Source: an uncultured archaeon (GTDB lineage Archaea > Asgardarchaeota > Thorarchaeia > Thorarchaeales > Thorarchaeaceae). Taken from it: DNA of 29,858 nt. Below the pieces are notes generated by a model that was not told the origin of the DNA, ran no database searches, and worked only from the letters and a program-made list of their open reading frames with translations. The stretch spans positions 1 through 29,858 of the forward strand of contig CAYYQL010000034.1 of the NCBI GenBank assembly GCA_964473825.1, in the 5' to 3' direction. How positions within the stretch are numbered: the stretch's first letter is position 1; each line of letters begins with the position of its first letter. Below are positions 2,079 to 29,364 of this stretch, in pieces. Position numbers and translations under genes: made by a program.

Positions 2079-3308
2079 GTGAAGACTATGACTGTTCGTG
2101 TTGTTTCGTTCTTCTCACCCATCACTTCAGAGTCAGTTGTTGAGCAGATGACCGCTGCCATCCGCGATACGGGAGTCAAAGTAGCAAGCCCGAAAGCGGC
2201 TAAGCAAGGCTCGGAGGGAGGGAAACACCCCTCTCAAACGTACCTGTTCATCGGGACTGGTGGAACCGAGCAGCTTGTTGCGGAATATGTCGAAAAGATT
2301 CACATCGCCCCTCCCATTAATCTACTTGCTCATGAGAGTAACAATTCCTTGCCCGCAGCAATGGAAATCCGTGCATATCTTGAGTCTCAGAACATGAATT
2401 CAGTCATAATACACGATAGGTTCGAGTCATTGTGCAAAAGGATGGTCGAGTGGGTAGAGTTCGACGGTATTCTCCAGAAGTTGAGGAATTCACGAATTGG
2501 AGTAATAGGGAGTGTTTCACAATGGCTGATTGCATCGAACATCGATGACAGTGACGTGAAACGAAACTGGGGCATTGCGATTGAGGCGATCCCCTTTGAA
2601 GATCTGACGGAACAAATGGACGAACAGAGTGTTTCCACTCTTGCTCGTGAGTTTGCGGATGCTGCAGACCTAGTCACAGTACCGCACAGCGAAGTTCAGA
2701 GAGCGGCACAGGTTGCAGCCAAGATGCAGCAAATCGTGACGGACCGCGAACTTGATGCTGTCACGTTGGAGTGCTTCAGGCTTGTGGGGACTACTGAGGT
2801 GACCGGTTGTTATTCGTTGGCCCTTCTCAATGCCAGAGGTTTGGTTGCAGGGTGTGAGGGCGATCTTCCTACCACTTTCACCATGTACCTGTCAAGGCTA
2901 CTGACAGGCAGTTCTTCGTTCATGGCAAACGTGATTTCTGTGGATCAGGACCAGGGAACTGTAGATCTCGCCCATTGCACGGTACCTCTCGACTTGGTTC
3001 TGTCCTATGACATAATGAGCCACTATGAGACTGACAAGAGCGTGGGTATCAGAGGGAGGATGGAAGACGGACCTGTTACATTGGTGAAGGTACATGGTCC
3101 GGGGCTAGAGCTATACTGGGTATCTTCTGGGCGCTTGATTACGAATCTGTCCGAAGACAGTGCCTGCAGGACCCAGGTTCGTGTGAAACTCAACGGCAAT
3201 GTTGACTATTTCTTGAATGCATCTCTGGCTAATCATCATGTCATTATTCCCGGAGATCATGAGCAAAGATTCAAACGATTCTTTGGGTTCAGCGCTGGGA
3301 CAACGTGA
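2079..3308 (+). CDS. L-fucose/L-arabinose isomerase-like protein
   Basis: Motifs 'GCEGDLP', 'AHCTVP', 'CRTQ' and 'LANHHVIIPGDH' are typical of fucose-isomerase-related proteins; start may be ATG 2088. Confidence 0.75.
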   Translation: MKTMTVRVVSFFSPITSESVVEQMTAAIRDTGVKVASPKAAKQGSEGGKHPSQTYLFIGTGGTEQLVAEYVEKIHIAPPINLLAHESNNSLPAAMEIRAYLESQNMNSVIIHDRFESLCKRMVEWVEFDGILQKLRNSRIGVIGSVSQWLIASNIDDSDVKRNWGIAIEAIPFEDLTEQMDEQSVSTLAREFADAADLVTVPHSEVQRAAQVAAKMQQIVTDRELDAVTLECFRLVGTTEVTGCYSLALLNARGLVAGCEGDLPTTFTMYLSRLLTGSSSFMANVISVDQDQGTVDLAHCTVPLDLVLSYDIMSHYETDKSVGIRGRMEDGPVTLVKVHGPGLELYWVSSGRLITNLSEDSACRTQVRVKLNGNVDYFLNASLANHHVIIPGDHEQRFKRFFGFSAGTT

Positions 3309-6359: not shown

Positions 6360-7424
6360 ATGATTGACGTGATAGAGAAGGTACTGCCCTACATTGGCGG
6401 GCTGTGGACATTGCCCTGGATCGTGGTCGGTTTCTTGATGACTATCGCTCTGTCCAAGTGGCTAGGGCAGGAACGAGTCAATGCGGGGATGAAGAAGGTC
6501 GGGCTGCTATTGCTGTTTGTGTTCATACCGCTTCTGTTGTTCAGAATATTCCTGAATATAGGCTTTGGACCCGAGGAGTTGATTTTCACCCTGATCACCT
6601 TCGTAGTGCTCACCTTCATGTATCTCGTATCGTATCTCTTCGGCTATCTGGAGGCTGGACAGATGGCCCTCGCTGAGACCGAGCGTCGAACCTTCATGAA
6701 GACTGTTCTTACCAACCAGGGGCGCAGTGCTGCGTTCGTGGGCGGGATGATGCTTGCCATCGAGGAGTGGAAGGTGCCGGCAGCCATATACATCAGCATT
6801 GTTGGCATAGGGCTCTTTGCCGTAATTCCTTTCATGCTCTCGATTATGCACAACCGAGAAAACCAGGGCCAAGAGAAGGTCGCAACATTACCTTGGTTTC
6901 TCCGATTGTACCCATGGTATCTACTCTCTTTCGTCGTGGCTGCAGTCATTATCCATAGGAGCACCGGCGTGACTGTGACCGATTTGGGGGATGCAGGGGT
7001 GGTGCTTCACTTCGTAACTGCTCTCACCATACCAGCCGGTCTTTACTATGTTGGAGCCGGGATACATCCGGGAGATCTGAAGGTTGCTGAGATGAAGAAG
7101 CTCTTCTCCCTGAGGCGCGGGGCATCCACTGGTAGGGAGTTCCACTGGACAGTGGCCAGAAATGCCTTCTTCTCCACTCTTATCCTGACTCCGATTGCCA
7201 TCATCTTGGTATTCGGGTTACTTATGTATGGGGGGGTCATTCCCAAGGAATGGTTTGCCGTCATAGCCCTGAACTCCATAATGCCCATAACCAGTACCAA
7301 CATGTTCTTGATACCCTACGGCATAGACCGCAAGGGAACAGCTCTGGCCATAACTTGGACCACCATCATTGCTGTTCCAGCCCTTATGGTACTCATACCT
7401 GTGTTCATGAGTCTATTCACATAG
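6360..7424 (+). CDS. AEC (auxin efflux carrier)/malate permease-like membrane transporter
   Basis: About 10 hydrophobic segments; 'FIPLLLF', 'IPAGLYYVG', 'MPITST' and C-terminal 'WTTIIAVP' resemble the AEC family; AGGTGA SD at 6349-6354. Confidence 0.65.
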   Translation: MIDVIEKVLPYIGGLWTLPWIVVGFLMTIALSKWLGQERVNAGMKKVGLLLLFVFIPLLLFRIFLNIGFGPEELIFTLITFVVLTFMYLVSYLFGYLEAGQMALAETERRTFMKTVLTNQGRSAAFVGGMMLAIEEWKVPAAIYISIVGIGLFAVIPFMLSIMHNRENQGQEKVATLPWFLRLYPWYLLSFVVAAVIIHRSTGVTVTDLGDAGVVLHFVTALTIPAGLYYVGAGIHPGDLKVAEMKKLFSLRRGASTGREFHWTVARNAFFSTLILTPIAIILVFGLLMYGGVIPKEWFAVIALNSIMPITSTNMFLIPYGIDRKGTALAITWTTIIAVPALMVLIPVFMSLFT

Positions 7425-7676
7425 CACTGATGAAATCGTCCGTTGTGAGTCCGGCCAGTTTGGACATCAAGGCCCCCTTTGAAGATGGAGTCCTGGTAGC
7501 CTCTCCCGATAGATGTGCGTATCGAACCATCTCGGCTCCTCCGAGAGAACGCTACATATCCCACTTACTTTCGTTCACCTCTCTGTGCTGCCGCTGTCCC
7601 CTCAGAGATATCGCCATTCATGGCAAGATGGATGAACCACCGTTTCCGAGACCTGCCAACGCGTGGCACATACCAT

Positions 7677-7692
7677 AAGCTATACTTAGCTT
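7677..7692. promoter_or_regulatory. Palindrome AAGCTA-N4-TAGCTT overlapping a TATA-like element upstream of uvrB
   Basis: Perfect 6-4-6 inverted repeat ending about 35 nt before the uvrB ATG and containing TATACTTA. Confidence 0.35.
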
Positions 7693-7726: not shown

Positions 7727-9706
7727 ATGGCAGAGTTCAGACTTGAGGCTCCATTCGAACCAACGGGCGATCAGCCCCAGGCTATCGATAAGCTAGTGGA
7801 GGGTCTCGAGGCCGATCTCAGAAACCAGACCCTGCTGGGGGTCACGGGAAGCGGTAAGACCTTCACCATGGCTAACGTCATGGAGCAGTATCAACGCCCC
7901 ACACTCGTCATCAGCCACAACAAGACCCTTGCGGCACAGCTGGCCAGCGAGTACCGCCACTTCTTCCCGGATAACGCCGTAGAGTACTTCGTTTCATACT
8001 ACGACTACTACCAGCCGGAGGCCTACGTCCCTTCGAAAGACATGTACATCGAGAAGGAGACGGACATTAACGCAGAAATCGAACGCCTGCGCCAGAGCAC
8101 CACCCGCTCTCTCAAGTCACGCAACGATGTCATCGTTGTCGCCTCGGTGTCTTGCATCTATGGTCTCGGAGACCCGAAGGAGTACGACGAACTCTCCATG
8201 GTGGTCGAGGTGGGTCAGGAAGTCGAGCGGCGGGAGCTGCTAGAGAAGCTCGTAGCCATGCAGTACGACCGGAACGACATGGAGATTGAGCCCGGCGTCT
8301 TCAGAGTTCGAGGTGATGTCATAGATGTATATCCTGGTTACTCGCGGGATGCCTTGCGGATTGAGCTCGATGGACCGAAGGTCTCACGGATATCACACCT
8401 TCAGGGGCTGTCGATGAAGCGCCTCTATGATGAGGATTTTGCGGTCTTGTGGCCGGCTCGTCATCATGTGGCACGCCATGAACGGATACTTGACGCCCTT
8501 GATGAGATTGAGCAGGAGATGCAGGAGCGAGTAGAGTGGTTCAGGAATCAGGGTAAGCTGGTTGAGGCAGACCGACTCAGACGTAGGACGCTCTATGATA
8601 TAGAGATGATGCGCGAGACTGGCCTCTGTCAGGGCATCGAGAACTACTCTCGTTTTATCGATGGTAGAGCGCCGGGTGAGCCTCCGTATACGCTGCTGGA
8701 CTACTTCCCTGACGAGTTCCTGATGATCATCGACGAGTCACATATGACAATTCCACAGGTTCGCGGCATGTACCATGGAGACCTCTCTCGGAAGAAGAAT
8801 CTGGTTGAGTATGGGTTCAGAGTTCCCTCGGCAGTCGACAATCGGCCCCTCACGTTCGAAGAGTTCGAGGGGTATATGCAGCATGTCATCTTCACCAGCG
8901 CCACGCCCGGACCGTATGAGCGGCGAGTCAGCGGCCAGATAGTGGAGCAGCTCATCCGCCCGACTGGTCTTCTTGACCCGAAGGTTGACGTTCGTCCTGT
9001 AGAGAGCCAGATCGATGATCTCCTGGGCGAGATTCGGAAGACGGTTGAGCGAAAGGAGCGTGTTCTGGTGACGACTCTCACGAAGAAGACTGCAGAGATG
9101 CTTGCGGAGTATCTTGTGGAGAACGGTGTCAAGGCCAGATATCTTCACTCAGATATCGGTACGGTGGAACGTATCGAGATCATCCGTGAATTGCGACTGG
9201 GCAAGTTCGACGTACTCGTGGGAATCAACCTCTTGCGCGAGGGTCTGGATCTTCCAGAGGTCTCTCTGGTGGCAATCTTGGATGCTGACAAGGAAGGCTT
9301 CCTGCGGAGCGAATGGGCTCTGATTCAGACTATGGGGAGAGCAGCACGGAATGTGAACGGTCAAGTGGTATTGTATGGCGACCATGTTTCAAACGCCATG
9401 CGCACCGCTATCGATGAAACAAACCGTCGGAGAGAGCACCAGCTGAGGTACAATGAGGAGCATGGCGTCACGCCTGAGACCATCAAGAAGGCAGTCCAGG
9501 ACATCGCGCAGGGTTTCCAGACGAGAACGAAAGACGCGCAAACACAGCTATCCGATTTCGACAGGTTGGAGATGCAGGAGATTCGAGATATCATTGTGAG
9601 TCTAGAAGAGGACATGAGACAGGCAGCTCGCGATTTAGAATTCGAACGGGCTGCACAGCTGAGGGACGAGATAGCTGAACTAAAGGCAAGGGTTGAGGGC
9701 AGATAG
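7727..9706 (+). CDS. uvrB: Excinuclease ABC subunit B
   Basis: 'PTGDQPQAI', Walker A 'GVTGSGKT', beta-hairpin '[15 protein letters not shown]', 'IDESH', 'GRAARN', C-terminal UVR '[13 protein letters not shown]'. Confidence 0.99.
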
Positions 9707-9710
9707 ATAG

Positions 9711-12608
9711 ATGACGGCAAGATACGAGACCGCAGTGGAGCCCGACGACGAGTTCGACGGTCCAAAGTCAATTGTCGTTCAGGGTGGCTCTGAGCACAAT
9801 CTCAAGGGCATTGATGTTGTGATTCCCCGTAACAAGTTCACAGTGGTCACAGGCGTCAGCGGTTCTGGTAAGAGCAGTCTAGTCTTTGACACGATTTTTG
9901 CCGAGGGGCAAAGGCGCTTCGTTGAGTCACTGTCTCCTTACGCACGGCAGTTTCTTGGCATGACTGAGAAACCCAATGTGGACTACATGTCGGGACTCTC
10001 ACCATCCATCTCGATTGATCAGAAGAGCGTGAGTCGGAATCCACGAAGTACGGTGGGCACAATAACTGAGATTTACGACTTCCTCAGATTGCTCTATGCC
10101 CGAGTTGGGGAACCGCACTGTCCTGACTGCGGCAAGAAGATAGAGCCGCAGACGGCCCAACAGATCGTTGACCGTGTTCTGATGATACCTGAAGACACCC
10201 GTGTCATGATTCTTGCTCCTATCGTAAGGGGCCGTAAAGGTGAGTACAGGAAGGAGTTCCGCGAACTGGTCCAAAAGGGGTTTGTAAGAGCACGTGTGGA
10301 TGGAGAGGCGATCGATATCGAGGAAGGCCTGTCGCTTGACAGGTACTTCGAGCATACGATAGAGGTCATCATAGACCGCGTTCGAATATCTCCTTCAGAA
10401 CGGTCTCGAATCTCAGAGGCTGTTGAAACCGCTCTTAAGATGGCTGAAGGAGTTGTGACCATCGTCACAGATGGCAGAGAACTGACTCTATCAGAACAGT
10501 TTGCCTGCGTTGACTGTGGTATCAGTCTTCCCGAGATGGAACCGCGCATCTTCTCGTGGAATACTCCACAGGGGGCATGTCCGAATTGTACTGGGATTGG
10601 CGTGATTCGTGAGTTTGACCCTGAGCTGTTCATAGAGGACCCCGAACTTCCTCTGAAGAACGGTGCCATCAAGACAGACAAGTGGCTTCTGAAGCGGAGT
10701 ATCACGAAGAAGCTCGCTGAACGATACGGATTCTCACTTGATACGAAATGGGAGGATCTCACCAAAGAACAGAAACATGTACTCATGTACGGAAGTGGCG
10801 ATGAAACCTTCAAACTGACATGGACAAACAAGAATCCTGATAGCGAGGTCCAGTGGGAGGGACGATTTGAGCGCGCATTTGAGGGCTTCGTATCACGAGC
10901 CAAACGGGTCTACAAGAAGACAAAGTCGAGTAGCCGTCGGAGGGACTTAGAACAACTCATGTCGTCTCATCCCTGTCCCGTCTGTAACCGGGGTCGGCTT
11001 CGGCCGGTTTCACAGGCTGTCACTTTCAATGGATGCTCTATCGTGGAATTGGACAGGATGTCCATCAAGCATCTACGAGAATTCTTTGACAATGTTGACA
11101 TTGATGCAAGGCATGAACCCGTTGCCCGTCCCATATTGAGCGAAATCATGGGTCGCATTGGTTTCTTGGAGGAGGTCGGTCTCGAGTACCTGACCCTTGA
11201 TCGCCTTGCACCATCGCTGGCTGGCGGAGAGGCCCAGCGAATCCGTTTGGCGAGTCAGATTGGGTCTGATCTCGTGGGTGTCACGTATGTATGTGATGAG
11301 CCATCTATTGGTCTGCATGCTCGAGACAACAAGCGTCTTCTCAATTCCCTGATGAAACTGCGAGACCTTGGGAATACAGTCATTGTTGTGGAACACGATG
11401 AGGAAACCATCCGGTCGGCTGACCATATCGTTGACCTTGGACCTGGAGCAGGGTCTGAGGGTGGTGAAGTTGTGGTTTCAGGCACTCTGGATGACGTTCT
11501 CGAGTCTGAGACCTCGATAACAGGTCGGTTCCTGAGAGGTGATGATGGTATCCCCATACCGGTTCAGAGAAGGACACCGAACGGAAGGTTCCTTGAGATT
11601 AGAGGTGCTAGACATCACAATCTGAAGTCAATCGACGTCAAGATTCCCTTGGGACTCTTCATAGCTGTGGCTGGTGTAAGCGGAAGCGGTAAGAGTAGTC
11701 TGATTGTTGAGACCTTGCAGCGTGAGCTTGCGCGGCGGTTCCACAATTCTCAGGAGAAGCCGGGTCCCCATGATGAGATTATGGGGGCAGACCTACTCGA
11801 CAAGGTCATTGTAATCGACCAGAGTCCGATTGGAAGGACCCCTCGAAGTAATCCTGCCACATACACTGGCCTATGGACTCCCCTGCGAGATCTCTTTGCA
11901 AGCCTGCCCGAATCGAAGATACGCGGCTACAAGAAGGGGCGATTTAGCTTCAACACCAAGAGCGGCCGCTGTCACAAGTGCAAGGGTGCCGGGGTTGAAA
12001 CCATCGAGATGCAGTTCCTACCCCCTGTTGAGGTTACCTGTACAGAGTGCAAGGGTAGGCGGTACGACCGTGAGACCCTACAAGTGCGATACAAGGGGAA
12101 GAATATAGCGGATGTCCTCGACATGCGGATTGATGAGGCACTCAGGTTCTTCGAAGGTCTTGGTCCAGTTGAGAGGCGCCTCCAGACACTGCATGATGTG
12201 GGTATGGGTTATGTGAAACTTGGGCAGCCTGCTACGACCCTTAGCGGAGGAGAGGCTCAGAGAATCAAGCTTAGCAAGTTTCTGTCTCGGCCCGCTACAG
12301 GACAGACGCTGATTATGCTTGACGAGCCCACTACGGGACTACACTTTTCGGATATCAAGAAGCTTCTCGAGGTACTGCACAGGCTTGTAGACTTGGGGAA
12401 TACTATACTGGTCATAGAGCATCAGCTTGATGTTGTCAAGACGGCAGACTGGGTTATCGACCTTGGGCCAGAGGGTGGAGAGGAAGGTGGATACCTGGTC
12501 GCCGAGGGATCACCAGAAGATATTGCATCGAATGAGAAGTCCTACACAGGCAGGTATCTTCGACCACTTCTCGGGTTTGATGATGAATCTGGAGGGACGG
12601 ACAAATGA
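9711..12608 (+). CDS. uvrA: Excinuclease ABC subunit A, paralogue 1
   Basis: Two ABC ATPase modules (GVSGSGKSS twice), 'AEGQRRFVESLS', Zn-binding CxxC pairs, UvrB-binding domain 'GFVRARVDG', 'DQSPIGRTPRSNPATY'. Confidence 0.98.
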   Translation: MTARYETAVEPDDEFDGPKSIVVQGGSEHNLKGIDVVIPRNKFTVVTGVSGSGKSSLVFDTIFAEGQRRFVESLSPYARQFLGMTEKPNVDYMSGLSPSISIDQKSVSRNPRSTVGTITEIYDFLRLLYARVGEPHCPDCGKKIEPQTAQQIVDRVLMIPEDTRVMILAPIVRGRKGEYRKEFRELVQKGFVRARVDGEAIDIEEGLSLDRYFEHTIEVIIDRVRISPSERSRISEAVETALKMAEGVVTIVTDGRELTLSEQFACVDCGISLPEMEPRIFSWNTPQGACPNCTGIGVIREFDPELFIEDPELPLKNGAIKTDKWLLKRSITKKLAERYGFSLDTKWEDLTKEQKHVLMYGSGDETFKLTWTNKNPDSEVQWEGRFERAFEGFVSRAKRVYKKTKSSSRRRDLEQLMSSHPCPVCNRGRLRPVSQAVTFNGCSIVELDRMSIKHLREFFDNVDIDARHEPVARPILSEIMGRIGFLEEVGLEYLTLDRLAPSLAGGEAQRIRLASQIGSDLVGVTYVCDEPSIGLHARDNKRLLNSLMKLRDLGNTVIVVEHDEETIRSADHIVDLGPGAGSEGGEVVVSGTLDDVLESETSITGRFLRGDDGIPIPVQRRTPNGRFLEIRGARHHNLKSIDVKIPLGLFIAVAGVSGSGKSSLIVETLQRELARRFHNSQEKPGPHDEIMGADLLDKVIVIDQSPIGRTPRSNPATYTGLWTPLRDLFASLPESKIRGYKKGRFSFNTKSGRCHKCKGAGVETIEMQFLPPVEVTCTECKGRRYDRETLQVRYKGKNIADVLDMRIDEALRFFEGLGPVERRLQTLHDVGMGYVKLGQPATTLSGGEAQRIKLSKFLSRPATGQTLIMLDEPTTGLHFSDIKKLLEVLHRLVDLGNTILVIEHQLDVVKTADWVIDLGPEGGEEGGYLVAEGSPEDIASNEKSYTGRYLRPLLGFDDESGGTDK

Positions 12609-15460
12609 CTGGTCACATCAGAGTGCGAAAAGGAGAGGAGCACAATCTGAAGACGATTGATGTTGATATTCCTCGAGATCGCCTTGTTGTCGTGACTGGT
12701 CCGTCAGGTAGTGGGAAATCTACACTGGTCTTTGACACCATATTTGCGGAAGGTCAACGACGCTACGTGGAGTCATTGAGCTCCTACGCTCGCCGTTTCC
12801 TTGGTCGACTGGATAAGCCGAAGGTTGAGAGGATCACGGGTCTTCCACCGGCGATCTCGATTGAACAAAAGGGTCGCACGAAGAATCCACGGAGCACTGT
12901 AGCCACAAGCACGGAGATTCAGGACTATCTTCGACTCCTCTATGCAAACATTGGCATCCCCCATTGCATGGAATGCGGTGAAGAGATGGAGCAGCTCACT
13001 GCTGACTCTGCAGCCAGATTGCTGCTCGACGAGAATGGTGGCCAGCGAGTGCTTATCATGGCTCCGGTGGTTCGTGACGAAATAGGGAGACATGAGGAAA
13101 CATTCCAGAAGCTGCGCGAGAAAGGATTTGTGCGAGTCCGAGTTGATGGCGAGATTCTTGACATCGAAGGTGTTGATATAGACGGGCGAATGAAACATAA
13201 CATTGACGTTGTTGTAGATCGGCTTGAGGTACGCCACAAGCGCCGTGAGCGGGTTGTTGGCTCCCTGGAGACCGCTCTCGAGGTGGGGGACGGTACTGCT
13301 CTGGTTGTTCGTGAAGGGTCAGATGATCTGGTGTTTGCTGAACAGCTGATGTGCCCCCACTGCGGCGTGCAGTATGACAATCTGACTCCCAAGTCTTTCT
13401 CCTACAACCGACCTGACGGTGCCTGTCCCGAGTGCAACGGTCTCGGTGTGACGATGGATATCCATCCTGATCTGGTCGTTCCTGATGAGGCTGAGCCGAC
13501 AGTCGGCATCTTCAAACGAGCTTTCCGAAACAGGAAGTGGTTGATGCGGAGAGCAAAGGCTCTAGCTGACCAACTTGACTTCTCACTGGACTCTCCTTGG
13601 AACGAACTACCCCGTTCGACTCGTGATATCCTCCTTCTAGGAAAACCTGAGATAGAACTCCATTATCAGACTGAGAGCGATACATCCGAATGGGAAGTCA
13701 AGCGAAAATGGAGGGGTCTGGTCGCCTGGCTCAGAGGAGTCTTTGAGAAGGGTCGAGGCAGTGAGAAGCAATGGTACCAGCGTCTCTCGCAGTACATAGC
13801 CGGGGAATTTGCCAAGAAAGTGACCTGTGCTTCATGCGGCGGCAGGAAGCTGAAACCAGTTTCTCTCAGTGTGACTGTAGGTGGCAAAGCGATAGATGAA
13901 GTCACATCTATGACGATTGAGCAGGCTCTTGAGTTCTTTGAGAGACTCAAGCTGACAGACCGGGACAGAAAGATTGCTGAACTCGTTCTCAAAGAGATTA
14001 TATCCCGACTACGGTTCATGGTTTCAGTGGGGCTTGAGTATCTCAACTTGGACCGACTATCCATGACTCTGTCCGGTGGAGAGAGTCAGAGAATACGGCT
14101 CGCCACCCAAATCGGTTCAGCATTGACAGGCGTACTCTATTGCTTGGACGAACCTTCTATCGGGCTTCATCCGCGAGACATCAATCGGTTGATAGACACA
14201 TTCTACAGGCTTCGAAGCCTGGGAAATACAGTGCTAGTAATTGAACACGACCGAGATACTATCGAAGCTGCTGACCATATCATAGACCTCGGGCCGTTAG
14301 CCGGAGTCCATGGGGGTGAGATTATTGCACAGGGGCCTCCGAAACAGGTTCTGTCAGATCCGAAATCCCTCACAGCTCAGTATCTCGCAGGCGAAAAGAA
14401 GATCCCAATTCCGAAGAAGCGTCGAAAGGGAAATGGTAAAACGATTCTTCTACGCGGCGTGAATACGAACAATCTGCAAGATATAGATGTCATGTTTCCA
14501 CTGGGCAAGTTCGTTGTTGTTTCGGGCGTGAGTGGCAGCGGCAAGAGCAGCATGGTTGACCAGACTCTCTACCGAGCTCTGGCGAAAGAAATCAATGGCT
14601 CGAACGTGGCACCAGGCCCTTATGATTCAATTGAGGGCGTTGAGAACATCGACAGACTCGTACTTGTCGACCAGAGCCCCATCGGCCGGACTCCTCGATC
14701 CAATCCCGCCACCTACACGAAGGTCTTTGATTCTATCCGTGACCTTTTCTCTGAGATGCCTGAAGCAAAGAAACGAGGATATGCACCGGGTCGATTCAGC
14801 TTCAACACCCGAGCTGGCCGATGTGCGAAATGCAAAGGAAGTGGAACGATTCGAGTTGAGATGCACTTCATGAGCGATGTCTACATGACATGCGACGTCT
14901 GCGAAGGGAAGCGTTTCGAGCGCGAAACCTTGGAGGTCAGGTACAAAGGCAAGAATATTACCGATGTACTGAATCTGACAATCGACGAGGCTTTCGAGTT
15001 CTTCTCTGACATTCCGAAGATCGCAGACAAGCTCCAGACCCTGAGAGACGTGGGACTCGGATATCTTCAATTAGGGCAGCCAGCCACTACTCTGAGCGGG
15101 GGGGAGGCTCAGCGCATGAAACTAGCCTCAGAGTTGTCGCGCAGAAGTACGGGAAACACGCTTTACATCCTCGACGAGCCCACAACTGGTCTGGCAGCAT
15201 CAGATGTCCATGTGTTGTTGAAGGTCATTGATAGGCTGGTGTCCATGGGCAACACGGTCATCACAATCGAACACAATTTGGAAGTGATCAAGACTGCAGA
15301 CTGGGTGATTGACCTGGGTCCGGAAGGCGGTTCTGCTGGTGGGCAGCTCGTAGCTGCTGGTACCCCAGAGGACATATGTGATGTATGGAATTCTTACACC
15401 GGCAACCATCTAAGATCCGTGCTGTATGCACATGATGCAATCTACGGTTCGATCTCCTAG
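12605..15460 (+). CDS. uvrA: Excinuclease ABC subunit A, paralogue 2
   Basis: Same full domain set as paralogue 1 (GPSGSGKST and GVSGSGKSS, LSGGESQ and LSGGEAQ, 'GFVRVRVDG'); ATGA overlap with paralogue 1; GGAGG SD at 12591-12595. Confidence 0.98.
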   Translation: MTGHIRVRKGEEHNLKTIDVDIPRDRLVVVTGPSGSGKSTLVFDTIFAEGQRRYVESLSSYARRFLGRLDKPKVERITGLPPAISIEQKGRTKNPRSTVATSTEIQDYLRLLYANIGIPHCMECGEEMEQLTADSAARLLLDENGGQRVLIMAPVVRDEIGRHEETFQKLREKGFVRVRVDGEILDIEGVDIDGRMKHNIDVVVDRLEVRHKRRERVVGSLETALEVGDGTALVVREGSDDLVFAEQLMCPHCGVQYDNLTPKSFSYNRPDGACPECNGLGVTMDIHPDLVVPDEAEPTVGIFKRAFRNRKWLMRRAKALADQLDFSLDSPWNELPRSTRDILLLGKPEIELHYQTESDTSEWEVKRKWRGLVAWLRGVFEKGRGSEKQWYQRLSQYIAGEFAKKVTCASCGGRKLKPVSLSVTVGGKAIDEVTSMTIEQALEFFERLKLTDRDRKIAELVLKEIISRLRFMVSVGLEYLNLDRLSMTLSGGESQRIRLATQIGSALTGVLYCLDEPSIGLHPRDINRLIDTFYRLRSLGNTVLVIEHDRDTIEAADHIIDLGPLAGVHGGEIIAQGPPKQVLSDPKSLTAQYLAGEKKIPIPKKRRKGNGKTILLRGVNTNNLQDIDVMFPLGKFVVVSGVSGSGKSSMVDQTLYRALAKEINGSNVAPGPYDSIEGVENIDRLVLVDQSPIGRTPRSNPATYTKVFDSIRDLFSEMPEAKKRGYAPGRFSFNTRAGRCAKCKGSGTIRVEMHFMSDVYMTCDVCEGKRFERETLEVRYKGKNITDVLNLTIDEAFEFFSDIPKIADKLQTLRDVGLGYLQLGQPATTLSGGEAQRMKLASELSRRSTGNTLYILDEPTTGLAASDVHVLLKVIDRLVSMGNTVITIEHNLEVIKTADWVIDLGPEGGSAGGQLVAAGTPEDICDVWNSYTGNHLRSVLYAHDAIYGSIS

Positions 15461-15505
15461 ACTCATACATCGAAGCCCTCAAGTTCTGGAGCGCTTTTCG
15501 CAGGA

Positions 15506-17326
15506 GTGAGAGATTTGTCAGAAATCGAGAAACTTGTCAACGATCTTCCCGCCTCACCGGGTATCTACATCTGGAAGGATAGTGAGGGCAATATTCTCTA
15601 CATCGGCAAGTCGAAAGAGCTTCGAAAACGCGTCCAGTCTTATCTCCGTCTTAGTGGTCTTGACAGAAGACGATGGGAGATGATGCAGAGCGCAAGTGAC
15701 CTTGAAACCATCCTGACAAACACGGAGAAAGAGGCTCTGCTTCTAGAGGCCACTCTCATTCAGAAGCATAGACCAAAGTACAATATATCGCTCAAGGATG
15801 ACAGAAGACACGCGTGGATTAGAGTGGACCTGAACGCCGAGATTCCCACGTTCAGTGTGACACGAGAAGTGGAGAAGGATGGTGCTTCATACTACGGTCC
15901 CTACGGGAGCACAAAGCGTGTGGAGCGATTTCTGGATACCCTGAGAAAGTACATTCCTATCGCAATGTGCACAGGTCCTGAAAGTGTCAGACGAGAGTGC
16001 ATGGACTTTCATCTCGGGCGATGTGTTGGTCCTTGCAAGGAACGTGAACCTCCTGAGGAATACAGGTCCCTTGTTGAGCAGATGTGTCTGTATCTTGAGG
16101 GCGAACAAGAGAAGCTTGTTGCTCTCTTGGACCAGAAGATGACCCGAGCGGCAAAGAATCTGGAGTATGAGACGGCTGCGGAGCTCCGTGACAGGATTCG
16201 AGACATCGAGATTCTCATGAGCCGACAACGAGTTGTCGAGGCCAATGGCATAAGCCGCGATGCACTCGGTATGTCAAGAACCGAACAAGCTTCGCTCATC
16301 GAGGTGTTGGTCGTCCGGGGCGGCCGATTGATTGGTCATGATTCGTTTTACTTTGAGATTGACATGGAGACCTCCGACACAGAGCTTCTCACTACGTTCA
16401 TCGAGCAGTTCTACTTCACACTTCCACAGCTCCCTGAAGAGATTCTTCTTCCCATAGACATCCCTGAAAGAGAACAGCTTGCTGAGTGGATGGGTGAGAA
16501 TGTGGACACGCCTGTGAGAATCCTGGTTCCACAGCAGGGTCAAGAAATGGATCTCATAGAGATGGCGAACAGAAATGCTTACCGGGCCCTGAGAAAGATC
16601 CTTATTCTCGGAGACAGTGAAGAAGAGATAGTCCATGATGGTGTTAAGGAGCTCAAGATGGCTCTTGACCTTCGACATGCCCCGATGCACATCGAAGGGT
16701 TTGACGTCGCAAATATCCAAGGAACTGATCCGACTGGCTCCTGTGTTGTATTCATGAACGGTGAACCGGAAAACAGTCAATATCGCATGTTCCGCATTCG
16801 CGTGAAAGACACCCCCGACGATTATGCCATGATGCAGGAAGTTGTCTATCGGAGATACCGTGGTGTCCTTGAGCGCGGGAAGAAACTGCCTGACCTGATT
16901 CTAGTAGACGGTGGCAAGGGGCAGTTGAATGTCACACTGCGAGCTCTCCAAGAGCTGGGGCTGGACTATGTGCCATTGGCCTCCATCGCGAAGCAGGACG
17001 AAATCCTTTTCACCAAAGAACACGAGGAGGGCATAGCTCTCGATTTTGATTCGGAAGCTCTTCACTTGGTTCAGCAAGTTCGAGATGAGGCACATCGTTT
17101 CGCACAGAGATACCATCACAAGCTTCGAGAGAAGAGATTCACGGGGTCCATTCTGGAGGAGGCACCCGGGATCGGTCCCAAGAGGCGTGCTGCTCTACTC
17201 AGATTCTTCGGCAGTTATGACAGGGTAAGGCAGGCCTCTATGGATGAGCTGGCCGCGGCAGATGGGATGACTGAAACGACTGCGAGAAACCTCAGAGAAT
17301 GGTTGGACGCCAAGGATCCCCTTTAG
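15506..17326 (+). CDS. uvrC: Excinuclease ABC subunit C
   Basis: GIY-YIG ('PGIY...LYIGKSK'), Cys cluster 'C...CMDFHLGRCVGPC', UVR domain, RNase H-like 'IEGFD...DDY...DGGKGQ...RDEAHRFA', HhH 'PGIGPKRR'; TTG 15515 is an alternative start with better SD spacing. Confidence 0.98.
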   Translation: MRDLSEIEKLVNDLPASPGIYIWKDSEGNILYIGKSKELRKRVQSYLRLSGLDRRRWEMMQSASDLETILTNTEKEALLLEATLIQKHRPKYNISLKDDRRHAWIRVDLNAEIPTFSVTREVEKDGASYYGPYGSTKRVERFLDTLRKYIPIAMCTGPESVRRECMDFHLGRCVGPCKEREPPEEYRSLVEQMCLYLEGEQEKLVALLDQKMTRAAKNLEYETAAELRDRIRDIEILMSRQRVVEANGISRDALGMSRTEQASLIEVLVVRGGRLIGHDSFYFEIDMETSDTELLTTFIEQFYFTLPQLPEEILLPIDIPEREQLAEWMGENVDTPVRILVPQQGQEMDLIEMANRNAYRALRKILILGDSEEEIVHDGVKELKMALDLRHAPMHIEGFDVANIQGTDPTGSCVVFMNGEPENSQYRMFRIRVKDTPDDYAMMQEVVYRRYRGVLERGKKLPDLILVDGGKGQLNVTLRALQELGLDYVPLASIAKQDEILFTKEHEEGIALDFDSEALHLVQQVRDEAHRFAQRYHHKLREKRFTGSILEEAPGIGPKRRAALLRFFGSYDRVRQASMDELAAADGMTETTARNLREWLDAKDPL

Positions 17327-19759: not shown

Positions 19760-21412
19760 ATGCTGAACCGCCACAAGATAATGGGTCTATTCGTAGTTCT
19801 CCTTACGGTCTCTTGGTTGTTTCCCCTGCTGGGTTCCACCTTCATCAAGGAGTTACCAACAGAGAAGGGTTTCACGCCCAGCCAGTTTGAATGGACCACG
19901 TACAATCGTGACATGAACGTTACAACTTTCGTATCACCAGACGGAAGCCGCGATGCGCTATGGGAGCTCCTTCAGAGCGCAGATGAGAGCATCTATGTTG
20001 AGATATACGGAATAAACAACCCCTACATCCTAGATCTGATTCATGAGATACATGACGATAAACCCGCGCTTGAGATGAAGTTTCTCATCGGATGGAATAG
20101 CTTGGGATACTACAGTCCAAATAAGTATGTAGCGAACAATCTCACAGAGCTTGGATACGAGGTGAGGTGGACGAACGCCTCCGACTTCACATTTGCCCAT
20201 CAGAAGTTCTTCGTTATTGACAATGAAACGGCGGTTGTTCATTCCGGAAACTGGGCCAAGACGAGCTTTCCTGAAGAGGGTAAGAAGGCGAATCGAGAAT
20301 GGAGCATTGCTATGACGGATGTACAAGTAGCGGGCTACTATCTAGATGTTTTCGACTATGATTGGTCTCGAGGGACGGAGTACGATGCAGGAACCCATGG
20401 TACGGGCGATCCCCTCTCCTACTCTCAGGTCGGGACCACATATATGCGGCCATTTACTACTCCTGGCAAGTTCTCTGGACAGATGAACGTGACGCCAATC
20501 TTCAGCCCAGATACCAGCTTGGAGGGAATTCTATACTGCATAAACAGCGCACAGGCCACGCTTGATATCCAGATACCCTATTTCACCAGTGTCGGTGATG
20601 AGGGTGCTGTTGACGAGATACTCGACGCTATCATTGCAGCCAAGAATCGAGGGGTCACTGTAAGAGTGATCTCCGAGGAAGAGAAGGACTGGATTGAAGT
20701 TGCCGAGATTCTGATAGAGCATGAGATTCCAATTGTGTGGCAGATGACAAGATGGTTCTCTGCAAACCACAACAAAGCTATAATCGTTGATGGACGCATC
20801 GTTCTGATCAGTAGCATAAACTACAGTGACGGCAGCATCACTCAGAATCGCGAGGCTGGAGTCATCATCGAGAATGACGAAGTGGCTCAGTGGTACCTCG
20901 ATGTCTATGACTTTGACTGGTCAGTTGCAAGCTGGGAAGAGCTTGATGAAGTGAATCTGTATTGGGATCCCAATATCCCAAATCATGAGGCTGATATCAC
21001 TGTCACTGTCTATGCCCATATGCTAAATGCAACACCTGTTGATGAGGTTTGGTTGGACTACAGAGTGGGTGCCAGTGCTTGGAACAATATCTCAATCATA
21101 GATAATCTGGCCAACTCGGAAGAGGGTAACCCAGAGAACTACTTCTATGTGATTCCTGCTCAGCCTGATGGAACCGACATCACCGTCGTTGGAAGGATAC
21201 GAGTTGGGTCTACATGGCACGTTGGCCTTCCTATGGTCATCCGTGTGCGGGACTCGATCGGTTCTGCGACCACGACTACAACCACAACGACGACTACAAC
21301 AACGGCTGATTCAATCCATGAATTTCTGGTCGAATTCGGAGTGTATATCGTCTTGATTGTCATTGCTGTGATATGTGGTGGTGGCTACAAGACCTACAGC
21401 AAACGACGCTAG
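19760..21412 (+). CDS. Secreted, membrane-anchored phospholipase D-superfamily enzyme
   Basis: Two HxKxxxxD motifs (HQKFFVID; HNKAIIVD), N-terminal signal/TM segment, poly-Thr linker, C-terminal TM helix with basic tail (SKRR). Confidence 0.9.
   Translation: MLNRHKIMGLFVVLLTVSWLFPLLGSTFIKELPTEKGFTPSQFEWTTYNRDMNVTTFVSPDGSRDALWELLQSADESIYVEIYGINNPYILDLIHEIHDDKPALEMKFLIGWNSLGYYSPNKYVANNLTELGYEVRWTNASDFTFAHQKFFVIDNETAVVHSGNWAKTSFPEEGKKANREWSIAMTDVQVAGYYLDVFDYDWSRGTEYDAGTHGTGDPLSYSQVGTTYMRPFTTPGKFSGQMNVTPIFSPDTSLEGILYCINSAQATLDIQIPYFTSVGDEGAVDEILDAIIAAKNRGVTVRVISEEEKDWIEVAEILIEHEIPIVWQMTRWFSANHNKAIIVDGRIVLISSINYSDGSITQNREAGVIIENDEVAQWYLDVYDFDWSVASWEELDEVNLYWDPNIPNHEADITVTVYAHMLNATPVDEVWLDYRVGASAWNNISIIDNLANSEEGNPENYFYVIPAQPDGTDITVVGRIRVGSTWHVGLPMVIRVRDSIGSATTTTTTTTTTTTADSIHEFLVEFGVYIVLIVIAVICGGGYKTYSKRR
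21269..21304 (+). repeat. Poly-Thr (12x ACN) linker in the PLD gene
   Basis: Twelve consecutive Thr codons using all four synonymous codons. Confidence 0.9.
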
Positions 21413-22303: not shown

Positions 22304-22804
22304 ATGAGTGAAGATGAAGTCCGCGATGAAATGGAGAACGAATATGACGAGGCAGAAACAACCGAGGAAATACTCCCCCCGCCTAGCGGTGGCAGATTGA
22401 GAAGGTTCCTGGACGACCCCTGGCCCACATCGACCTTCATCCTCATGATGCTAGGGTTTGTGATAGTTCTATTCACGCCCTATGAGGTATGGTCGCAGTG
22501 GAGCTGGATGCTTGTCGGTGCCTACTTCATGTGGATCTTGGTGATTGTTGGCTTCGTCTTTTCAACACAGGTTTGGCGTAAGTCTTCTGGATCAAAGATG
22601 AGATTCGCGGCAATTGCGATTTTCATGGTTATCTTTGCGGTAGGGATACTCGGCACAATTGATCTCGGCTTATGGATGCTGATATCGACTCCTCTCCTAC
22701 CGGGCCTTGAGGCACCATTACTTTATGGAACCAACGCGATTGTAGTGTTTTGTCTCTACAGTCTCTGGCTGCTGCAGAGAGCAACAAGCCCCGATCGTTC
22801 GTAA
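22304..22804 (+). CDS. Hypothetical membrane protein (about 4 TM) with acidic N-terminus
   Basis: 166-aa ATG ORF with four hydrophobic segments; only 3 nt from the next gene. Confidence 0.75.
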   Translation: MSEDEVRDEMENEYDEAETTEEILPPPSGGRLRRFLDDPWPTSTFILMMLGFVIVLFTPYEVWSQWSWMLVGAYFMWILVIVGFVFSTQVWRKSSGSKMRFAAIAIFMVIFAVGILGTIDLGLWMLISTPLLPGLEAPLLYGTNAIVVFCLYSLWLLQRATSPDRS

Positions 22805-24085: not shown

Positions 24086-24205
24086 ATGAAGAAAGAAGAC
24101 TCTGACCCCTCAGACGCAGAGTGGGCCGATACCGTTGAGTGGCCAGAAGAAGACTGGGGCGACGACTACTGGGACGAAACCGGTTCCGAGAACGGGTACT
24201 TCTGA
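24086..24205 (+). CDS. Acidic Trp-rich micro-protein (39 aa)
   Basis: MKKEDSDPSDAEWADTVEWPEEDWGDDYWDETGSENGYF; GTGAGG SD-like site at 24072-24077; strongly biased composition. Confidence 0.6.
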   Translation: MKKEDSDPSDAEWADTVEWPEEDWGDDYWDETGSENGYF

Positions 24206-24225
24206 CTGGATTTGTGCAGGACAGA

Positions 24226-25062
24226 CTACCGACTGCTCCCTTCTTGTTCCGTCCGGTCTTGTATTGCTTTTCGGCAACGGAGCAGTCGGTTATACGACTT
24301 CCTCAACTGCTTCGAATCATCCCGTTTCCATATCTCTCTTATCAGGTACAGGACTTCTCGTGCCTCTTTCACTCTCGCCATGAGCTCAGAGTAACGGCTC
24401 TTGAGTTTCTTCAGAGGCACTGTATTGTCTTTAATCGTTTCCTGCAAGTCGAGAATCCTACTCTCAAGAGAATTCAGCTGTCCATTGATTGTTGCATCGA
24501 GAGCCATTTCGATCTCTCTATCACTCTTTGGCCCAACCGCTCTGACCCTCGACCATCGGGAAACCTTGGCGTCAATATCCTTCATGGACTCTGCAAACTC
24601 CTTCGGAGTCAGTACTTTTCTTACACTTTCCTTCTGATAGAATCGAGCGATGTCTTTGGACCTGAGGTGGGGGAACAAGACTGCCCCTTTTCTGATACGA
24701 ATATAGGCGGAACGGTTGAGCAGGCGCTGAGTCTTTTTCTTCTGTTGGGCTGTGGGTTCAACAAAGGAATAAGAAATAAGCACGTAGGTCCGACGTCGGT
24801 ATAGTTCAGGGTCAGTCTCTTTAACTCGGGGAATCTCTCGTGCTCTCTTGAGTGTGAGATACCGGAACCTCTGCACATATTCTCGCACTTTCTTGTTCTG
24901 TACTGGAACCCTGTACACTCCTCTAGCCAGTCTTCGGATTGACTTGATCTTGCGTGCACCTCTTCTGAACTCCTTGTCGTCTCCTATAACGACAACGAGG
25001 AATGAAGTACCTGATAGTCTGTCCTCAGTTCGTGATTCCTCAGAAACGTTTCTGTCGTTCAA
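24226..25062 (-). CDS. Highly basic hypothetical protein, possible Cas2/PaaX/ChrB-N-like fold with a helical C-terminus
   Basis: 278-aa ORF, about 25% Lys+Arg by manual count; 'YVLISYSF...KKKTQRLL...YIRIRKGAVLFP'; TTG start with GAGGGG SD. Confidence 0.75.
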   Translation of the reverse strand: MNDRNVSEESRTEDRLSGTSFLVVVIGDDKEFRRGARKIKSIRRLARGVYRVPVQNKKVREYVQRFRYLTLKRAREIPRVKETDPELYRRRTYVLISYSFVEPTAQQKKKTQRLLNRSAYIRIRKGAVLFPHLRSKDIARFYQKESVRKVLTPKEFAESMKDIDAKVSRWSRVRAVGPKSDREIEMALDATINGQLNSLESRILDLQETIKDNTVPLKKLKSRYSELMARVKEAREVLYLIREIWKRDDSKQLRKSYNRLLRCRKAIQDRTEQEGSSR

Positions 25063-27242: not shown

Positions 27243-28094
27243 CTATTGAGCACCCCTTTCGACATTCAGTCGAAGCGTGTCATACTCGCCCGGAGTGAAT
27301 CTAATGCGGGTTCTTATCGACTGCCCTTCTAGCAGAGGTATTGGACTCTCGATGGGCATGAGAATCTCCTTCCATCCGTCTTCCATATTCAATCTGATAT
27401 CATCGCTCAGGTCGGCCTCGAACATACCCAGGAACCCATGTAGAATCCCATTAGAACAGATGGTGAAATCCAGAAGCTCATCAACAGCCAGTGATTCGTC
27501 ATTTGAGTTGAACGTGAACTCCTTGACAAGGACAAGATTTGCAAGGTCTCTAGCGGCCCCTCTCTCCACCGTCTGAGGAACGGGCATGAACGCAATGGCT
27601 TCGCGTCTGAATCGTGACCACACAGTGTTACACTCGACTGGTACTGCATAGATGCGGATATGATTCGGAAGAATGATTCCGTCCGTTTTCAGGATGTGTT
27701 TCTTGGCGTGGATTGCAGCGGGAACCTGTTGTTCAATCAGCATGAATGACGAAAGCATCTCACAAATAACTACGTCAGCTTTCTCTTCGGCAACGAAGTC
27801 TCTGAAGTCACTGACAACGAACTCCATGTTCGCATCCAGTTTGTTTCGTCTTGCTACCGACCTTGAGTATTCAACCGATTTCTCATTGATATCAACACAG
27901 ACGACCTTTCTCGCACCGGCCTGAGCTGCAAGCATGCCCAGAATACCACTGCCACTCCCAATGTCAACTACTACGCTATCAGCGTCTACGTACTGCTCAA
28001 TTGCACTGTTGAATTTGCCAATTCTCGTCCTGTGACTGAGCAGACTTATCGCATGCAGGAATGGAAATGGAGAAATGTAGTTTCTATTCGTCAT
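27243..28094 (-). CDS. SAM-dependent methyltransferase with PRMT-like architecture
   Basis: Motif I 'VVDIGSGSGIL', post-I 'VVCVD', double-E loop 'CEMLSSFMLIE', 'LKTDGIILP', beta-rich C-terminus with 'HGF' and 'DGW'; start set at ATG 28094. Confidence 0.85.
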   Translation of the reverse strand: MTNRNYISPFPFLHAISLLSHRTRIGKFNSAIEQYVDADSVVVDIGSGSGILGMLAAQAGARKVVCVDINEKSVEYSRSVARRNKLDANMEFVVSDFRDFVAEEKADVVICEMLSSFMLIEQQVPAAIHAKKHILKTDGIILPNHIRIYAVPVECNTVWSRFRREAIAFMPVPQTVERGAARDLANLVLVKEFTFNSNDESLAVDELLDFTICSNGILHGFLGMFEADLSDDIRLNMEDGWKEILMPIESPIPLLEGQSIRTRIRFTPGEYDTLRLNVERGAQ

Positions 28095-28123
28095 TCTAAT
28101 GCCTGATTGCCATATCATCAGGC

Positions 28124-28131
28124 ATTTATAA
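28124..28131 (-). promoter_or_regulatory. TATA box for the methyltransferase gene
   Basis: TTATAAAT on the minus strand 30-37 nt upstream of ATG 28094. Confidence 0.45.
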
Positions 28132-28203
28132 CAAGAGTGAAGACGTCGAGCTATGTTTGGATGGGTCACAGTATCTCCCCATCCGCTCAAGAGGTAGTGC
28201 CGA

Positions 28204-29364
28204 TTGACAAAGGCTGCAATCAACCGTTCCAGAGAGGCAATCAGTGAGGGACGCTTTGCTGATGCTATCCAGATTCTGGAGCCTCTTGTTCTTGACGGTT
28301 GTGATGAGCCCGATGTCCTGCTCTATCTTGGGATGGCATATCTACAGACCGAACGTCCTCAGGATGCTGTGGAAGTGCTTGAGAAAGCAGCAGAGCAAGT
28401 TGAAGATCACTGCATTCTTGATATGTTACTTGGACGTGCCTACACTGCAACAGGCTGTCTTGATGATGCTGAGATGTACCTTGAAAGGGCCATTAGCAGA
28501 GAACCCGAACTGGTCGAGGCATGGGTAGATCTGTCAAAGGTTCTCTATTTCAATCATGAATATGGCAAAGCTGCACGTGTTCTAGAAGATGCAGTAGAAC
28601 GCTTCCCGGACAATCGTGCTCTCCTTTCAATACGGGCAATGAGTCTCTATAGATTGGGCGACTACACCGAGGCGACAAAGGAATGGGGTGAGTTATGCCG
28701 ACTTGACCCGCAGAATCCGAAATACGTGACCACGTATGCCTATTCACTCCTTATGCTGGGTCGGTTAGATGAAGCATCGCCGTACGTCGAGCAAGCCAGA
28801 TCAATGGAACCTGATAGTCACCGTACTCTGCTGCTTGATGCCGAACTGAGATTCCGCAGAGGTGAGCTGGATGAGGCCCGAGATTTCTTCTCTAGGGCGC
28901 TTGAGCGGTGTTCTGATAGCCTAGAGGCAATAGCCCGGCTAGCTGTGATCGAATCCCGTAGGGGTAGGGAAGCCAAATCAAAAGAGTACCTCAACATTGC
29001 TAACGAGTTAGTAGAGAAGGAGCCCTCGTCTTGGCAACGAATCTGCGATTCTTATCAGATGCTTGGCGAGAAAGACCGTCTTATTGATTGCTTGACTTCT
29101 GTTACTGAAAACGACCGGAGCTGTGCAGCTGCATGGATTCGATTGGCCCGCGAATACAAGGAGAGGGGCATGGAGGCGCGGGCGTACGCCGCATGGAGGG
29201 AGTCCTTTGATATCCGAGGATATGTGAAGTTGTACTGCAGCGACTGTGAGACCTACTTCAGAGTGCCTTATGAAGAGAGTTCTGATTTCGACCCCCTTCA
29301 ACATGCAGAATGCATATACTGCAACTCTATACTATCTATGCCTGAATCCTTAGCAGATATCTGA
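28204..29364 (+). CDS. Multi-TPR protein with C-terminal zinc ribbon
   Basis: About 9-10 TPR-like units followed by 'CSDC...CIYC'; TTG start with GAGGT SD. Confidence 0.88.
   Translation: MTKAAINRSREAISEGRFADAIQILEPLVLDGCDEPDVLLYLGMAYLQTERPQDAVEVLEKAAEQVEDHCILDMLLGRAYTATGCLDDAEMYLERAISREPELVEAWVDLSKVLYFNHEYGKAARVLEDAVERFPDNRALLSIRAMSLYRLGDYTEATKEWGELCRLDPQNPKYVTTYAYSLLMLGRLDEASPYVEQARSMEPDSHRTLLLDAELRFRRGELDEARDFFSRALERCSDSLEAIARLAVIESRRGREAKSKEYLNIANELVEKEPSSWQRICDSYQMLGEKDRLIDCLTSVTENDRSCAAAWIRLAREYKERGMEARAYAAWRESFDIRGYVKLYCSDCETYFRVPYEESSDFDPLQHAECIYCNSILSMPESLADI

Follow-up and report, generated by a model that had tools for sequence, protein, structure and literature searches.

Two overlapping genes for complete, diverged class I UvrAs in Thorarchaeota: a candidate split counterpart of the fused double UvrA

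In nucleotide excision repair (NER), the canonical damage sensor UvrA works as a dimer and recruits two UvrB molecules, each of which touches the UvrB-binding domain of one protomer and the signature domain II of the other (PMC11985968). How such a symmetric UvrA2UvrB2 assembly yields the asymmetric pre-incision complex, in which a single UvrB sits on the damaged strand, is an open question (PMC11985968; see also PMC7835731). Other forms of UvrA have been described. Class II UvrAs, such as UvrA2 of D. radiodurans, DrrC and Ecm16, have neither the UvrB-binding domain nor the first zinc module; their genes are usually not linked to uvrB and uvrC, and they act outside NER (PMC9328131). Two uvrA genes fused to each other have been reported for Planctomycetes (PMC8567305), and NCBIfam holds a model of 1,809 positions for the double form of Chlamydiae (NF001885/PRK00635). 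For Asgard archaea a 2026 review states just that they have UvrABC, and we found no paper on tandem class I UvrAs in this group or on such a split pair. Here we describe such a pair, encoded by the genes uvrA1 and uvrA2 (products A1 and A2), in contig CAYYQL010000034.1 of the uncultured Thorarchaeota genome GCA_964473825.1, of which the whole stretch of 29,858 nt was analysed (hereafter the window).

The pair lies between uvrB and uvrC, and the features of the locus are the following:

7727..9706, forward strand: uvrB, 659 residues; NF003673 at 1028 bits against a cut-off of 743; Pfam domains UvrB_inter, Helicase_C, UvrB and UVR
9711..12608, forward strand: uvrA1, class I UvrA of 965 residues, the more canonical copy; NF001503 at 1379 bits against 1147; PF17760 at residues 147-252, PF17755 at residues 303-415
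12591..12608, forward strand: coupling junction, with GGAGGG at 12591-12596, ATG at 12605-12607 and the uvrA1 stop TGA at 12606-12608
12605..15460, forward strand: uvrA2, class I UvrA of 951 residues, the more diverged copy; NF001503 at 1324 bits against 1147; PF17760 at residues 134-235, PF17755 at residues 288-381
15506..17326, forward strand: uvrC, 606 residues, GTG start; TIGR00194 at 531 bits against 285; GIY-YIG, UVR, two RNase H-like domains and HhH

All four assignments thus exceed the curated NCBIfam equivalog cut-offs. The uvrA1 ATG follows the TAG stop of uvrB after 4 nt and uvrC starts 45 nt behind the end of uvrA2, while uvrA1 and uvrA2 share the ATGA at 12605-12608, within which uvrA2 restarts in a different frame. 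A preliminary description of this DNA had reported two complete UvrAs of 965 and 951 residues in the order uvrB-uvrA1-uvrA2-uvrC with an ATGA overlap, and its coordinates proved exact, with GGAGGG upstream of the junction. It had also taken the host for an archaeon, in agreement with the assignment to the Thorarchaeota within the Asgard archaea; the nearest public contigs, whose A2 is 64-97% identical, are labelled Thorarchaeota and in a few cases Hermod-, Sif- or Promethearchaeota. The metagenome-assembled genome (MAG) comprises 3.27 Mb in 103 contigs and is 95.7% complete with 4.4% contamination; neither an archaeal nor a bacterial small-subunit ribosomal RNA was detected in it. A1 and A2 are the sole strong UvrA matches in this 95.7%-complete genome, which holds no third UvrA.

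Both copies have the complete architecture of a class I UvrA. A1 and A2 score 1314 and 1288 bits with TIGR00630 (cut-off 730), and each contains two Walker A, two signature, two Walker B and two H-loop motifs as well as six CxxC pairs, which make up three zinc modules. The UvrB-binding domain PF17760 (129 bits in A1, 97 in A2) and the insertion domain PF17755 (77 and 50 bits) lie above their cut-offs in both, so that the earlier claim that UvrB-binding domain, insertion domain and zinc modules are kept in both holds. No decayed domain was found in either protein in approximate per-domain comparisons; in the UvrB-binding and insertion domains A2 is, by the same approximate comparison, somewhat farther from the canonical consensus than A1. 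A class II identity is ruled out for both copies, as PF17760 and the first CxxC pairs are retained. A single fused reading frame is likewise ruled out, the TGA stop being followed by a new ATG and the two proteins scoring 690 and 729 bits with NF001885 against a cut-off of 3054.

In an alignment of 954 residues, A1 and A2 have 50% identity. Their genes share 54% of nucleotides, third positions of codons for identical residues agree at a fraction of 0.38, and identical runs reach 12 nt at most. Because of the low DNA and third-position identity and the short runs, the two are to be regarded as old paralogues and neither as an assembly repeat nor as a recent copy, much as the preliminary description had argued from their divergence. 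The DNA-level comparison gave no sign of gene conversion between them.

Is the arrangement a property of this genome or of the lineage? Wherever a Thorarchaeota locus has sufficient flanking sequence, which is the case for about 45 loci, the order is uvrB-A1-A2, with uvrC next to it or within a few kb. The uvrB-A1-A2 arrangement is found too in G025, a genome from a sister family within that order. As a side observation, uvrA2 and uvrC are between about 0 and 5 kb apart among the Thorarchaeota loci (L040-L046, L052, L058, L062, L072 and others), some of which carry inserted genes, around an invariant uvrB-A1-A2 core. In a survey of 71 MAGs of the GTDB family, two strong UvrA matches were found in 52, one in 10 and none in 9; completeness is 80-99% in the latter two groups, and where there is a single match it is in most cases partial. 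Searches for homologues of near the same length returned almost solely Thorarchaeota orthologues. Orthologues are 67-78% (A1) and 64-74% (A2) identical to the copies in the window, and A1 and A2 are always 48-52% identical to each other. Of 47 distinct A1/A2 junctions, 45 have an overlapping stop and start, in the form of ATGA or GTGA (40 junctions), TTGA (1), GTGA or TGATG (2) or TAATG (2), two being without obvious overlap, and upstream of each of the 47 there is a G-rich Shine-Dalgarno-like motif.

Both uvrA1 and uvrA2 are under strong purifying selection. In five pairs of close genomes the ratio of nonsynonymous to synonymous substitution rates (dN/dS) is 0.035-0.057 for A1 and 0.040-0.067 for A2, as compared to 0.02-0.06 for uvrB and 0.04-0.07 for uvrC. 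Relaxed selection in one copy, which the preliminary description had named as a sign against its heterodimer, is therefore not observed, with dN/dS of at most 0.067 for both. These data also bear on the suspicion that the second UvrA is an artefact, arising from duplication in the assembly or from a chimeric bin, or else an additional copy in decay, as could be asked of a MAG in 103 contigs with 4.4% contamination. No evidence was found in favour of it, and it is refuted by the DNA identity of 54% without a long identical run, by the dN/dS below 0.07 in both copies, and by the same arrangement in dozens of independent MAGs and in the complete chromosomes CP070761 and CP070658.

How might two such UvrAs work together? 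Because the stop and start codons overlap behind a Shine-Dalgarno motif, uvrA1 and uvrA2 are probably translated in a coupled way, which would supply A1 and A2 in 1:1 amounts. The two proteins would then assemble into a pseudo-symmetric heterodimer, each protomer of which would be able to bind UvrB, and this sensor would pass the lesion on to UvrB and UvrC in the bacterial manner. The pair would most likely be the split equivalent of the double UvrA of about 1,900 residues that Heimdallarchaeaceae, another Asgard family, Chloroflexota, Planctomycetota and Chlamydiales have as a single chain. We infer, and hold it to be rather probable, that the working sensor is a coupled A1-A2 heterodimer that loads UvrB and forms the two-gene counterpart of the fused double UvrA, because canonical UvrA is a dimer recruiting two UvrB, and because A1 and A2 are the sole UvrAs of the genome, would be produced in equimolar amounts, are never found apart in Thorarchaeota loci, are both strongly constrained and have a one-chain form elsewhere.

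Some observations weigh against this reading, and several of them would be equally at home with two independent homodimers, A1A1 and A2A2, that share one UvrB and UvrC and differ in the lesions or conditions to which they are tuned, with the link in the operon and the overlap serving co-expression only. Each copy retains everything that a homodimeric UvrA needs, including all ATPase motifs, the zinc modules and the UvrB-binding and insertion domains, and each has its own fixed substitutions by the ATPase motifs, which could tune specificity. Moreover, an Asgard genome that we call G220 has two unlinked full-length class I UvrAs (L119, 3244-6141; L120, 3458-6352), indicating that two UvrAs need not be coupled. 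We nevertheless consider separate homodimers unlikely, as the pair is never apart in about 45 loci and overlaps in 45 of 47 junctions, and as the fusion of both types into one chain in other lineages is hard to reconcile with them.

The substitutions just mentioned were scored at 311 columns whose conservation among 97 ordinary single-copy UvrAs is 90% or more. Thorarchaeota A1 has fixed differing residues at 16 of these columns and Thorarchaeota A2 at 18. In A1 they comprise LAGGE for LSGGE in signature I, YVCDEP before Walker B-I, LIMLDEP before Walker B-II and IEHQ for IEHN; in A2 they comprise GKST after Walker A-I, GLPP for GLSP, YARR for YARQ, and GLS or GLA for GLH after Walker B-II, the latter position being GLA in the A2 of the window. 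No catalytic residue is lost in A1 or A2: the changes are conservative ones in the neighbourhood of the motifs, and a degenerate site is not apparent. Walker A-I (K37) has been assigned to the proximal and Walker A-II (K646) to the distal ATPase site, and signature domain II is linked to the proximal one (PMC7835731). On this basis most of the A1 changes and the GLH change of A2 would map around the distal site, which is implicated in damage discrimination. A division of labour between the A1 and A2 protomers is something that we only infer. A bolder form of the heterodimer proposal would have the pair obligate and asymmetric, such that the distal-site changes of A1 (LAGGE, LIMLDEP, IEHQ) and of A2 (GLH to GLS/GLA) give the protomers unequal roles in damage discrimination or in the choice of the UvrB that is kept on the damaged strand, with the fused UvrAs of Heimdallarchaeia and several bacterial phyla being the same machine in one chain; this we regard as possible, if somewhat doubtful.

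Two further comparisons touch on the partners of A1 and A2. A structural model of the UvrB-binding domain of A2 (residues 120-248) with UvrB reached an ipSAE of 0.68, with 0.00 for the best control, and so passed a mark that is reached by 58 of 80 solved complexes and by 2 of 110 mismatched pairs. At least 75% of the contacts are common to the model runs, the partner pLDDT is at least 79, and the contacts on UvrB fall on residues 168-232, which is domain 2. Since a like complex has already been solved (3FPN, 3UWX), the pass may show likeness to it only and not binding. In pairwise distances among 26 genomes, A1 and A2 covary with a partial r of 0.67, as against -0.09 to 0.21 with UvrB or UvrC. 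This is weak evidence in support of the pairing, and it is a further point to be set against the heterodimer that such covariation could merely reflect constraints common to paralogues.

What is known of fused UvrAs outside Thorarchaeota? The preliminary description had pointed to the double-length UvrA of bacteria such as Chlamydiae as a related form, and this form is found also in Asgard lineages related to Thorarchaeota; in the best tree its N-halves are A1-like and its C-halves A2-like. G028 and G050, which belong to one Asgard family, and G211 from another have a single open reading frame of 1917-1972 residues that contains two complete UvrAs. In the fused Heimdall chain a linker of roughly 20-30 residues joins the two units. 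The fused type of G028 and G050 clusters with proteins named Heimdallarchaeaceae, while other clusters with a fused double UvrA are named Chloroflexota, Planctomycetota and Chlamydiales. When A2 was searched against 1.8 billion cluster representatives, the best 150 were mostly double-length proteins, of three kinds: two class I units, a class I unit with a unit without insertion domain, and two class II units. Outside Thorarchaeota, the single-length A2 relatives P0133 and P0151 stand without a tandem partner, and a short reading frame before P0151 is not a UvrA. Yet another arrangement is that of the Asgard genome G139, with one class I UvrA in a uvrB-uvrA-uvrC cluster and a class II copy. 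Asgard lineages therefore differ in their sensor, which is single in the family of G139, fused in Heimdallarchaeaceae and split in Thorarchaeota, and this may be useful for tracing the transfer of bacterial NER into archaea.

Other UvrA-like proteins are also present. Reading frames of about 1,620-1,645 residues that consist of two class II-like UvrA units, each without its N-terminal third, occur in several Thorarchaeota and other Asgard genomes (G007, G011, G016, G024, G220 and G211; for example G220:C1:3574257-3578453), and such class II-like doubles are many among the global representatives (P0056, P0072, P0087 and others). As to the two class I UvrAs of G220, one is canonical and the other is long-branched with an unstable placement in the trees.

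Do A1 and A2 correspond to the two halves of the fused proteins? In a FastTree analysis of 219 rows, the single-copy bacterial UvrAs and most Asgard UvrAs form one clade, Thorarchaeota A1 is sister to the N-halves (support 93) and Thorarchaeota A2 shares a polytomy with the C-halves of these proteins. A quick IQ-TREE run with 81 rows joins A1 with the N-halves (88) and A2 with the C-halves (97). Run thoroughly, IQ-TREE (LG+F+G4, 42 rows, 943 columns) parts Thorarchaeota A1 and all N-halves from canonical UvrAs, Thorarchaeota A2 and all C-halves (97.8/90) and unites Thorarchaeota A2 with all C-halves (93.1/84). Profile scores lean towards the same pairing, and by them both Thorarchaeota units are nearer to canonical UvrA than the fused halves are. 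The correspondence of A1 to the N-terminal and of A2 to the C-terminal unit is thus the best-supported pairing, and as judged from these alignments it is moderately supported. The best tree also suggests that the duplication predates Thorarchaeota and is common to the bacterial and Heimdall fusions.

The deep nodes are insecure, because approximately unbiased (AU) tests leave alternatives unrejected (p 0.07 to 0.47), and the comparison with fused halves envisaged in the preliminary description therefore stands in the best trees, which pair A1 with N and A2 with C at supports of 84-98, but not to the exclusion of other topologies. Here, too, several results speak against the proposed correspondence. 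Monophyly of A1 and A2, as expected from a duplication within Thorarchaeota only, costs 23.9 units of log-likelihood (delta lnL) and is not rejected in a thorough constrained search (p-AU 0.074), which replaced a fast constraint tree that had given p 0.038. A placement of A2 beside the canonical UvrAs (p-AU 0.32-0.47) and swapped pairings of units and halves (p-AU 0.10-0.21, from fast constrained searches) are not rejected either, and synapomorphies in group consensus sequences number 1-2 columns each way, too few to decide.

A Thorarchaeota-only duplication would fit with a third view of the sensor, according to which A1A1, A2A2 and A1A2 dimers mix freely, with no strong preference, and the likeness to fused forms is convergent. 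Besides the unrejected monophyly, a change from A to V after Walker A-I, which is common to both Thorarchaeota copies and absent from fused halves and canonical UvrAs, would be in line with it. On the other hand, the best trees of all three analyses part A1 from A2, the bp-RELL and c-ELW tests exclude the monophyly tree, and coincident changes of A1 and A2 in conserved columns are at chance level, with 2 observed and about 0.9 expected. Free mixing after a lineage-specific duplication seems to us quite improbable. The earlier suggestion of an old duplication in place fares unevenly: the two are indeed old paralogues, whereas the best tree suggests a duplication before Thorarchaeota (with a Thorarchaeota-only origin not rejected, p-AU 0.074) and the shared unusual traits are not supported as traits of the family. 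Of these traits, the pattern FSFNT..GRC.KCKG occurs in 2 of 16 Thorarchaeota A1 and 9 of 16 A2 and hence is no feature of the family, and the KWL of the insertion domain is found as K/R-W-L/M in 3 of 16 A1 and 4 of 16 A2, an aromatic residue at this place being common in ordinary UvrAs.

If the A1-A2 heterodimer exists, what would be gained? As long as both protomers come from one gene, it is hard to mutate a proximal or distal ATPase site, a zinc hairpin or a UvrB-binding domain in just one protomer of the homodimer. A UvrA encoded by two genes would permit protomer-specific mutation by ordinary genetics and biochemistry, and the greatest use of the split pair of Thorarchaeota would be as a natural system for such experiments. 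A heterodimer would also explain the purpose of the widespread and uncharacterised double-length UvrAs. If instead each copy homodimerises, the locus would be a case of ordinary paralogue specialisation.

Elsewhere in the window, open reading frames for products of 142-409 residues without a Pfam match lie at 2079-3308, 6360-7424, 7250-7678, 22304-22804 and 24139-24804. That at 7250-7678, directly 5' of uvrB, overlaps the 3' part of 6360-7424 and is possibly not a real gene. A gene at 19760-21412 on the forward strand, downstream of an amino-acid permease gene on the opposite strand, encodes a protein of 550 residues with two PLD-like (HKD) domains. On the reverse strand, 27243-28223 encodes a methyltransferase of 326 residues that matches PrmA and, more weakly, PRMT5 and the PRMT5 oligomerisation domain; it is possible that this Asgard genome here encodes a protein arginine methyltransferase-like enzyme.

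How does the Thorarchaeota pair compare to the known systems? The canonical class I UvrAs of E. coli, G. stearothermophilus (2R6F/3UWX), T. maritima (3PIH) and M. tuberculosis are homodimers that form UvrA2UvrB2. A1 and A2 each resemble them in their full architecture, in scores above the equivalog cut-offs and in an operon with uvrB and uvrC. They differ in that there are two diverged copies (50% identity) that are coupled and inherited as a pair, for which reason the dimer is probably a hetero- and not a homodimer, and in that the trees do not place them in the clade that holds the single-copy bacterial UvrAs and most of the other Asgard ones. With the fused double UvrAs of Chlamydiae (NF001885/PRK00635), Planctomycetes (PMC8567305) and Heimdallarchaeaceae (1916-1929 residues) they share two complete units per locus, the A1-like unit standing first according to the best tree, and the double form is the sole UvrA of the genome; in Thorarchaeota, however, the units are separate polypeptides divided by a stop and an ATGA restart, and A2 keeps the insertion domain that some fused forms lack in their second unit. 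As in organisms with class II paralogues, a class I UvrA is accompanied in Thorarchaeota by a further member of the UvrA family, but unlike class II proteins both copies keep their UvrB-binding domain and first zinc module; some related genomes do contain separate genes of the class II-like and double class II-like types. Finally, heterodimeric ATP-binding cassette (ABC) systems such as the heterodimeric ABC exporters are built from paralogous partners placed side by side, with unequal nucleotide sites and changes next to the ATPase motifs. The UvrA pair of Thorarchaeota likewise consists of adjacent ABC paralogues with paralogue-specific changes by the ATPase motifs, and it differs from the heterodimeric ABC systems in that both copies have kept their catalytic residues.

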